Assembly: GCF_003334815.1 (NCBI RefSeq)
Contig: NZ_QOWO01000128.1
Reading direction: 5' to 3' (one strand)
Source of the DNA: Escherichia coli
GTDB taxonomy: Bacteria > Pseudomonadota > Gammaproteobacteria > Enterobacterales > Enterobacteriaceae
Length of the DNA stretch: 557 nucleotides
Under the pieces are notes generated by a model. It made no database searches and was not told the origin of the DNA. It worked only from the letters and a program-made list of their open reading frames with translations. A program made the position numbers and the translations under genes. Shown in pieces: positions 1-557 of the stretch; the first letter of the stretch is position 1; the number at the start of each line of letters is the position of its first letter.

Positions 1-57
1 GTCCTTCATCGCCTCTGACTGCCAGGGCATCCACCGTGTACGCTTAGTCGCTTAACC
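1..57 (-). rRNA. rrl: 23S ribosomal RNA, 5' end only (gene continues beyond the left edge of the window)
   Basis: The reverse complement of 1..57 reads GGTTAAGCGACTAAGCGTACACGGTGGATGCCCTGGCAGTCAGAGGCGATGAAGGAC, which matches the canonical 5' end of enterobacterial 23S rRNA as I recall it. The mature 5' end (GGTTAAG) falls at position 57. Boundary is from memory of the mature end, not from mapping. Confidence 0.93.
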
Positions 58-231
58 TCACAACCCGAAGATGTTTCACTTCAGAGTTGCGAAAATTTGA
101 GAGACTCACGAACAACTTTCGTTGTTCAGTGTTTCAATTTTCAGCTTGATCCAGATTTTTAAAGAGCAAAACTTCGCAGTGAACCTTTGCAGGTACACTC
201 TGAAGTATTTTTTATTTAATCACTACAGAGA
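58..231 (-). other. Transcribed spacer between tRNA-Ala and 23S rRNA (distal part of the 16S-23S ITS)
   Basis: Lies between the tRNA-Ala 3' end (232) and the 23S 5' end (57). AT-rich, with no ORF carrying a plausible start and ribosome-binding site on either strand. Contains the boxA-like motif and a tetraloop hairpin listed separately. Confidence 0.9.
156..168 (-). promoter_or_regulatory. boxA-like rRNA antitermination element in the spacer
   Basis: The reverse complement of 156..168 is TGCTCTTTAAAAA, which closely resembles the rrn boxA consensus (GCTCTTTAACAA), the NusB/NusE-binding element of the rRNA antitermination system. A spacer copy of boxA between the tRNA genes and 23S is a known feature of E. 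coli rrn operons. Exact extent is approximate. Confidence 0.6.
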
Positions 232-307
232 TGGTGGAGCTATGCGGGATCGAACCGCAGACCTCCTGCGTGCAAAGCAGGCGCTCTCCCAGCTGAGCTA
301 TAGCCCC
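232..307 (-). tRNA. alaT: tRNA-Ala, anticodon UGC, 76 nt, CCA encoded
   Basis: The reverse complement of 232..307 is GGGGCTATAGCTCAGCTGGGAGAGCGCCTGCTTTGCACGCAGGAGGTCTGCGGTTCGATCCCGCATAGCTCCACCA. It has the G3:U70 identity pair of tRNA-Ala, a D-loop (AGCTGGGAGAGC), anticodon TGC (plus-strand GCA at 272..274), a T-arm (GGTTCGATCC) and a 3' CCA. This matches the E. coli spacer tRNA-Ala(UGC). The paralogue (alaT, alaU or alaV) cannot be told apart from this window; the symbol is the family representative. Confidence 0.97.
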
Positions 308-349
308 ATAACATGTAGTTAAAACCTCTTCAAATTTGCCGTGCAAATT
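308..349 (-). other. Short spacer between tRNA-Ile and tRNA-Ala
   Basis: 42 nt between the two tRNA genes. Contains an 8-bp inverted repeat (332..339 pairing with 343..350) that abuts the tRNA-Ile 3' end. Confidence 0.9.
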
Positions 350-426
<77 letters not shown>

Positions 427-494
427 GTAGAGGTTTTACTGCTCATTTTCATCAGACAATCTGTGTGAGCACTGCAAAGTACGCTTCTTTAAGG
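427..494 (-). other. Transcribed spacer between 16S rRNA and tRNA-Ile (proximal part of the ITS)
   Basis: The reverse complement begins CCTTAAAGAAGCGTACTTTGCAGTGCTCACACAGATTGTCTGATGAAAATGAGCAG, directly after the 16S 3' terminus. This matches the enterobacterial ITS sequence that forms one half of the 16S RNase III processing stem. Confidence 0.9.
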
Positions 495-557
495 TAAGGA
501 GGTGATCCAACCGCAGGTTCCCCTACGGTTACCTTGTTACGACTTCACCCCAGTCAT
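495..557 (-). rRNA. rrs: 16S ribosomal RNA, 3' end only (gene continues beyond the right edge of the window)
   Basis: The reverse complement of 495..557 is ATGACTGGGGTGAAGTCGTAACAAGGTAACCGTAGGGGAACCTGCGGTTGGATCACCTCCTTA. This is the universally conserved 16S 3' domain: the binding site of the 1492R universal primer, helix 45, and the anti-Shine-Dalgarno CCTCC (plus-strand GGAGG at 498..502). The mature 3' end is at position 495. Confidence 0.96.

Follow-up and report, generated by a model that had tools for sequence, protein, structure and literature searches.

The spacer boxA of the Escherichia coli rrnD operon and its surroundings in the 16S–23S spacer

Results

The window, that is, the whole 557-nt stretch of DNA that was analysed, is 100% identical to E. 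coli K-12 and represents the reverse complement of the rrnD 16S–tRNA-Ile–tRNA-Ala–23S spacer. A match to it was present in all complete E. coli genomes (5,426/5,426). Rfam and ARAGORN together placed four genes on the minus strand of the window (Table 1). The operon was assigned to rrnD because of its flanking genes, which are yrdA upstream and 5S–thrV–5S and yhdZ downstream. For the comparisons below, the complete rrnD operon was used in sense orientation as a 9.5-kb locus (L001), so that positions 557..1 of the window correspond to L001 4501..5057. The scanning of both strands of the window for promoters and terminators identified none, and there is no sign that the boxA described below is part of a promoter or of an intrinsic terminator. 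Rfam matches to HPnc0260, Plastid-ycf2 and OxyS remained far under the gathering scores and were dismissed as noise, those to HPnc0260 and Plastid-ycf2 being antisense to the tRNA genes.

Table 1. Features of the 557-nt window, in the order of transcription.
Feature	Position	Strand	Basis or remark
16S rRNA, 3' end	495–557	minus	Rfam/ARAGORN
tRNA-Ile(GAU)	350–426	minus	Rfam/ARAGORN
tRNA-Ala(UGC), alaU; last gene ahead of the hairpin-boxA unit	232–307	minus	Rfam/ARAGORN
BoxB-like hairpin (predicted)	171..206	minus	structure prediction
Spacer boxA 13-mer, UGCUCUUUAAAAA	156..168	minus	sequence and published core/consensus
23S leader-trailer long-range helix, outermost part of the 5' strand, AAUCUGGAUCAAGCUGAAAAU	137..157	minus	pair count
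Pre-23S leader, from boxA to the mature 23S 5' end, including an internal hairpin and the inner portion of the processing helix	58..155	minus	
23S rRNA (rrlD), 5' end	1..57	minus	spacer boxA sits 98 nt ahead

The first-pass annotation of the window had proposed a boxA-like motif on the minus strand within the spacer. Window 168..156 reads TGCTCTTTAAAAA, exactly as proposed. This 13-mer equals the rrn leader boxA 13-mer TGCTCTTTAACAA at 12 of 13 positions, and the core read by NusB-NusE, UGCUCUUU, occupies window 168..161. The two differ only at position 11 (leader C, spacer A), which lies at window position 158 (minus) when compared with L001 2888. In the coordinates of the complete locus the leader copy is found, as an exact match, at L001 2878-2890 and the spacer copy at L001 4890-4902, both on the rRNA sense strand.

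The 8-mer core by itself was matched at ≤1 mismatch in 97 out of 200 shuffles and is not significant in isolation. As the bare 8-mer is uninformative, the 13-mer at ≤1 mismatch was adopted as the test against chance. By this measure the window holds a single site, where 0.01 would be expected, and only one of the 200 dinucleotide-preserving shuffles contained any. Within 2 mismatches, on either strand of the 9.5-kb rrnD locus, the leader and spacer copies were the only ones found, while a 3-mismatch search added a spurious match within tRNA-Ile. Since the bare 8-mer is not significant, the case for a boxA is built on the 13-mer together with its strand, position and conservation.

The positions that matter for binding are well described. 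As seen in the crystal structure of NusB–NusE bound to BoxA, base-specific contacts are made at nucleotides 1–8, and the U1C and A9C mutants fix the E. coli numbering such that nucleotides 1–8 are those of the core given above (PMC3177189). Baniulyte et al. defined the functional consensus of γ-proteobacteria as GYTCTTTAANA, with C4 being critical (PMC5725501). The spacer copy is an exact match to GYTCTTTAANA and thereby retains the whole 8-nt core and C4; the C11 to A change is outside nucleotides 1–8 and coincides with the N of GYTCTTTAANA. The first-pass annotation had held that a divergence at positions essential for NusB/NusE binding would speak against a boxA. As the core and C4 are intact and the sole change falls on the N, no such divergence exists.

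The same arrangement is found throughout the K-12 genome. Each of its seven rrn operons contains exactly two boxA-like sites and no others within 2 mismatches, in agreement with the proposal that the spacer carries a second boxA in addition to the leader copy. In 7/7 operons the leader boxA ends 131 nt ahead of 16S. The spacer boxA ends 98 nt ahead of 23S in rrnD and rrnG and 107 nt ahead in the other five, placing it on the transcribed strand and a short distance (98-107 nt) ahead of an rRNA gene in all seven. The alignment with the leader boxA of the same operon and with the other E. coli spacers thus gave a one-base difference from the former and, in all seven operons, full identity among the latter, with the C to A difference between leader and spacer being fixed in every operon.

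Counted from boxA to 23S, rrnD has a pre-23S leader of 98 nt, 9 nt less than the 107 nt of rrnA, B, C, E and H. The short form is common to rrnD and rrnG, the latter being a tRNA-Glu operon, and appears in the StyR-44 alignment as a gap in a small hairpin. The presence of the 98-nt leader in both rrnD and rrnG suggests mosaic exchange between the spacer types.

Upstream of the motif, window 206..171 was predicted (centroid structure) to fold into a hairpin of 36 nt with −15.5 kcal/mol, reading ACUUC..AGUG.ACCU-GCAA-AGGU.CACU..GAAGU and located 2 nt upstream of boxA. Over the seven operons, the identical spacer boxA is preceded by three unrelated hairpins with predicted energies of −10.5 to −16 kcal/mol, so that the tRNA-Glu-type operons also carry hairpins, though of unrelated sequence, at the equivalent place. 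The predicted loops are GCAA in rrnA, rrnD and rrnH, UUCG in rrnB, rrnC and rrnE, and GUUA in rrnG, the structure and the position being kept and the sequence not. The boxB of rrn operons has been described as a hairpin without consensus sequence that is dispensable for antitermination (PMC6614797). With the predicted hairpin taken as boxB, the spacer would show the order boxB then boxA, the reverse of the lambda nut sites. When 92 nt around the motif were folded, the overall stability was not significant (z = −1.1) and only the local hairpin was robust. The 8-nt core was unpaired in the centroid fold, and three of its bases were paired in the cofold with the 23S trailer. The core is therefore predicted to be available as linear, largely unpaired RNA.

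On its downstream side the motif runs into the long-range helix that brings together the two flanks of 23S. Window 157..137, whose first two bases are the two A that close the 13-mer, can form 19 Watson–Crick pairs out of 21 with L001 7939–7959, a segment of the 23S trailer 35–55 nt past the 3' end of 23S. None of 5000 shuffles reached this count, their maximum being 16, and in the cofold the entire 23S leader pairs with the trailer. An equivalent is found at the leader boxA: L001 2895-2918, in the boxC region and starting 5 nt after the leader boxA, pairs at 22 of 24 positions with window 475..452 (0/5000 shuffles). Window 452-475 on the minus strand, GCAGUGCUCACACAGAUUGUCUGA, is situated just after 16S and provides the 3' strand for the helix at which RNase III processes 16S. 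A duplex-energy test was applied to 16 other operons that have a spacer boxA, and in nine of them the 40 nt following the boxA paired with the 23S 3' flank at z < −3. The same test was weak for the outer 23S helix of E. coli, an AU-rich duplex (z = −1.6), and for this reason the pair count and shuffles were used there.

The Rfam family StyR-44 (RF01830) matched window 164..65 over the full model (1-107) with 106.9 bits against a gathering score of 54. This family describes a cloned fragment of the pre-23S leader and not a Nus site; it overlaps boxA without defining it. Its 5' end falls inside boxA, after UGCU, leaving out the first four bases of the core. StyR-44 has been located upstream of 23S in all rRNA operons, and its discoverers did not exclude a metastable processing intermediate (PMC2943607). 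The start of StyR-44 within the Nus-binding core could reflect an RNase cut or a protection boundary.

To assess orthologous spacers, a conserved segment of the 23S 5' end was searched for in genome contigs, which gave a sample of 120 loci from many phyla that was not selected by the motif. The 350 nt upstream of the 23S anchor were examined, amounting to 96 unique regions. The core pattern G[CT]TC[CT]TT[AG][AG] was present in sense orientation in 38 of these and in antisense orientation in three (mean of the shuffles 1.9, maximum 7). The consensus GYTCTTTAANA occurred in 16 regions in sense and in none in antisense, and the 11-mer at ≤1 mismatch in 61 and 16, respectively. Absence of the motif from orthologous spacers, another outcome that would have counted against it, is thus not what the sample shows, given the strong enrichment and strand specificity of boxA-like cores ahead of 23S. 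In the 50 operons for which both rRNA anchors were found, the strict pattern was present in both leader and spacer in 22, in the spacer only in five, in the leader only in seven and in neither in 16; several operons of the last group have recognisable variants, such as CGTTGTTTGAGAA in Streptomyces.

Among close relatives, Enterobacter cloacae has the exact leader/spacer pair of E. coli, and Escherichia albertii has the same spacer 13-mer. Within the γ-proteobacteria, no strict core was found within 350 nt of 23S in SAR86 (L064, L115), Legionella nagasakiensis (L090-L091) and Pseudomonas oryzihabitans (L122). L. nagasakiensis carries AGTTCATTAACAA, with one core mismatch, at the usual distance, and in P. 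oryzihabitans nothing convincing was seen within two mismatches.

Discussion

We conclude, with a probability of roughly 93%, that minus-strand window 168..156 represents the spacer boxA of E. coli rrnD. Each E. coli rrn operon has two boxA copies, of which this is the second. The finding adds nothing new, because the element is the textbook spacer boxA, which has been known for decades. Spacer boxA has been described since the 1980s and mutated in vivo, and the leader version of its complex has been solved by cryoEM.

As far as the spacer boxA of Berg, Squires & Squires 1989 and of Pfeiffer & Hartmann 1997 can be followed through the papers that cite these studies, the motif is the same element, here in rrnD: the position between the spacer tRNA genes and 23S, the order of boxB and boxA, and the sequence all fit the parts of the published description available to us, in which no difference was found. 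The reviewing literature likewise places boxA and boxB in both the leader and the spacer of E. coli rrn operons and, in the parts consulted, cites experiments on the spacer copy (PMC6614797, PMC4807359).

Two known boxA types offer themselves for comparison. The leader boxA of the E. coli rrn operons (UGCUCUUUAACAA) shares with the spacer boxA the strand and the 8-nt core for NusB-NusE. Like the spacer copy, it is invariant across the seven operons, with a hairpin ahead of it and, within 0-4 nt behind it, the 5' strand of a helix processed by RNase III. It differs in having C11 in place of A11 and in being followed by boxC and the 16S helix, whereas the spacer copy is followed by the 23S helix. 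The structures and binding data consulted were obtained with rrnG nut-like or 'rrnG BoxA' RNAs, which we take to be of the leader and not of the spacer form.

The boxA of lambda nutL and nutR is likewise a linear RNA that is bound by NusB-NusE and nucleates a complex of Nus factors on RNA polymerase. Unlike rrn boxA, it has transversions at positions 8 and 9 (PMC3177189), and its binding is about ten times weaker (80-90 nM, vs 5-8 nM for the 'rrnG BoxA' RNAs; PMC2800207). In the lambda nut sites boxA is followed by boxB, which binds N protein, whereas in rrn the order is reversed and boxB is dispensable. A lambda-type nut site was considered for the rrnD spacer and rejected, as here the hairpin precedes boxA and the next structure downstream is the 23S processing helix. 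Functionally, the spacer boxA resembles a nut site without being of the lambda type.

The polymerase modified by the Nus factors is Rho-resistant and elongates faster. According to the structural work, boxA RNA is bound by the heterodimer of NusB and NusE (S10), which together with NusA, NusG, SuhB and S4 builds a ring at the RNA exit channel and fastens the nut-like RNA to the polymerase (PMC8632103, PMC6614797). The assembly of this rrnEC nucleates on a nut-like element of the leader and of the 16S–23S spacer, and the nut RNA is kept within the modifying complex (PMC8632103). For the spacer copy itself, NusB-NusE binding and a Nus-dependent effect are taken from the literature (Berg et al. 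1989; Pfeiffer & Hartmann 1997), to the extent that these studies are reported in PMC6614797 and PMC4807359. As summarized in the latter, boxA copies are located upstream of 16S and of 23S and boxA mutations lower rRNA synthesis (citing Heinrich 1995 and Pfeiffer & Hartmann 1997), those in the spacer copy (Pfeiffer & Hartmann 1997) being among them (PMC4807359). The NusB and SuhB signals in ChIP span the locus from the first boxA on, and thus show no separate contribution of the spacer copy.

A role for a second copy can be envisaged from the processing of the transcript. RNase III would cut the 16S helix while transcription is still going on, by which the leader boxA would become detached from the polymerase. 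Given such a detachment, the spacer copy would let the complex re-assemble for the 2.9-kb 23S gene. Once tethered, the spacer boxA may also hold the neighbouring 5' strand of the 23S helix close to the polymerase until transcription has passed 23S and the partner strand appears. The claim of the first-pass annotation that the spacer boxA keeps the antitermination complex engaged through 23S is supported in its essence, and is better worded as the Nus/SuhB complex nucleating afresh at a new RNA site. As the window is 100% identical to rrnD of K-12 in any case, little is gained from its further remark that the motif points to a functional operon.

The antitermination role assumed in the same annotation is supported as well, with its rank as the main benefit being disputed between antitermination and the tethering and folding of RNA (PMC4807359). 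It is conceivable, at somewhat less than even odds in our estimation, that the Nus complex is bound at the spacer boxA but that its main job is to tether the 5' end of pre-23S, the resulting loop aiding co-transcriptional folding and delivering the helix strand to its partner 2.9 kb further on. Consistent with this, boxA adjoins the 5' strand of a long-range helix in both leader and spacer, as judged by pair count and cofold, and the segment after the spacer boxA pairs with the 23S 3' flank in the nine other operons mentioned above. Deletion of nusB or suhB reduces the occupancy of RNA polymerase over the rRNA loci, measured by ChIP, by only about 25%, and the same authors argue that antitermination is not the main role; in addition, NusB relies on SuhB to associate with the elongating polymerase (PMC4807359). 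A model of 'delivery' exists for boxC and the 16S helix (PMC8632103), but the arguments and tests for it mainly concern 16S and 30S biogenesis and not 23S. Against tethering as the main job also stands that boxA fragments suppress Rho termination in reporters and that boxA mutations lower rRNA synthesis, as far as these experiments are reported in PMC6614797 and PMC4807359. The two roles are not mutually exclusive.

That the sequence is kept as a structural part of the pre-23S leader or of StyR-44, as an element for processing or for recognition by an RNase, and not for the binding of Nus factors, could be argued from the StyR-44 match, which overlaps the last nine bases of the motif, and from the predicted pairing of the last two A of the 13-mer with the trailer. 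This we regard as very unlikely: the 8-nt core is predicted to be largely unpaired, the leader has the same core ahead of a wholly different sequence, and this core recurs upstream of 23S in distant phyla with unrelated flanks. Moreover, the StyR-44 authors themselves could not exclude that their RNA is a metastable processing intermediate (PMC2943607). Still less probable is that ribosomal protein S1, and not NusB-NusE, is the relevant ligand. S1 is reported to have an affinity for leader and spacer boxA (PMC8632103), yet, as the same review points out, it would need to dislodge NusB-NusE from the boxA on which cryoEM structures of the rrn complex place it (PMC8632103). NusB-NusE moreover binds rrn boxA with nanomolar affinity (5-8 nM for the 'rrnG BoxA' RNAs, taken as the leader form and not the spacer; PMC2800207). 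A chance resemblance without a function of its own, for which the A/T-rich spacer and the frequency of the bare 8-mer core in shuffles might be invoked, has a negligible probability in view of the 0.01 sites expected per window at ≤1 mismatch, of a sequence that is the same in seven operons and lies there 98 or 107 nt ahead of 23S, a nearly constant position, and of the strand bias of 38 to 3 across phyla, a sample which excludes gene conversion among close relatives as its source.

The fixed difference at position 11 deserves a separate comment. The ACA triplet inside the leader boxA was reported in a 2025 paper as a cleavage site of MazF, the spacer copy not being discussed there (PMC12541390). 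The C11 to A change removes this triplet from the spacer copy, and in six out of seven operons no ACA occurs within about 35 nt on either side of the spacer boxA, rrnG having one at −29. The split into leader C and spacer A is also seen in E. cloacae (L087-L089) and Pseudomonas marginalis (L095-L096). One could therefore imagine that the difference is functional and makes the spacer copy a MazF-resistant point for Nus re-loading. If true, MazF would under stress abort transcripts at the leader and spare the polymerases already committed to 23S. We consider a functional meaning of the difference to be improbable, however, because ACA triplets are present in the spacer unit at +36 and +43 nt and because position 11 varies between lineages: Vibrio hannami (L043-L044) has C in both copies, Cycloclasticus (L074) has the reversed arrangement, and the spacers of Vibrio and Marinomonas keep C.

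Conclusions

The value of the finding is one of annotation only. In the rrnD spacer, the boxA marks the presumed point at which the polymerase is re-equipped with the Nus factors and SuhB before entering the 2.9-kb 23S gene, and the outer limit of the pre-23S processing helix lies here too.
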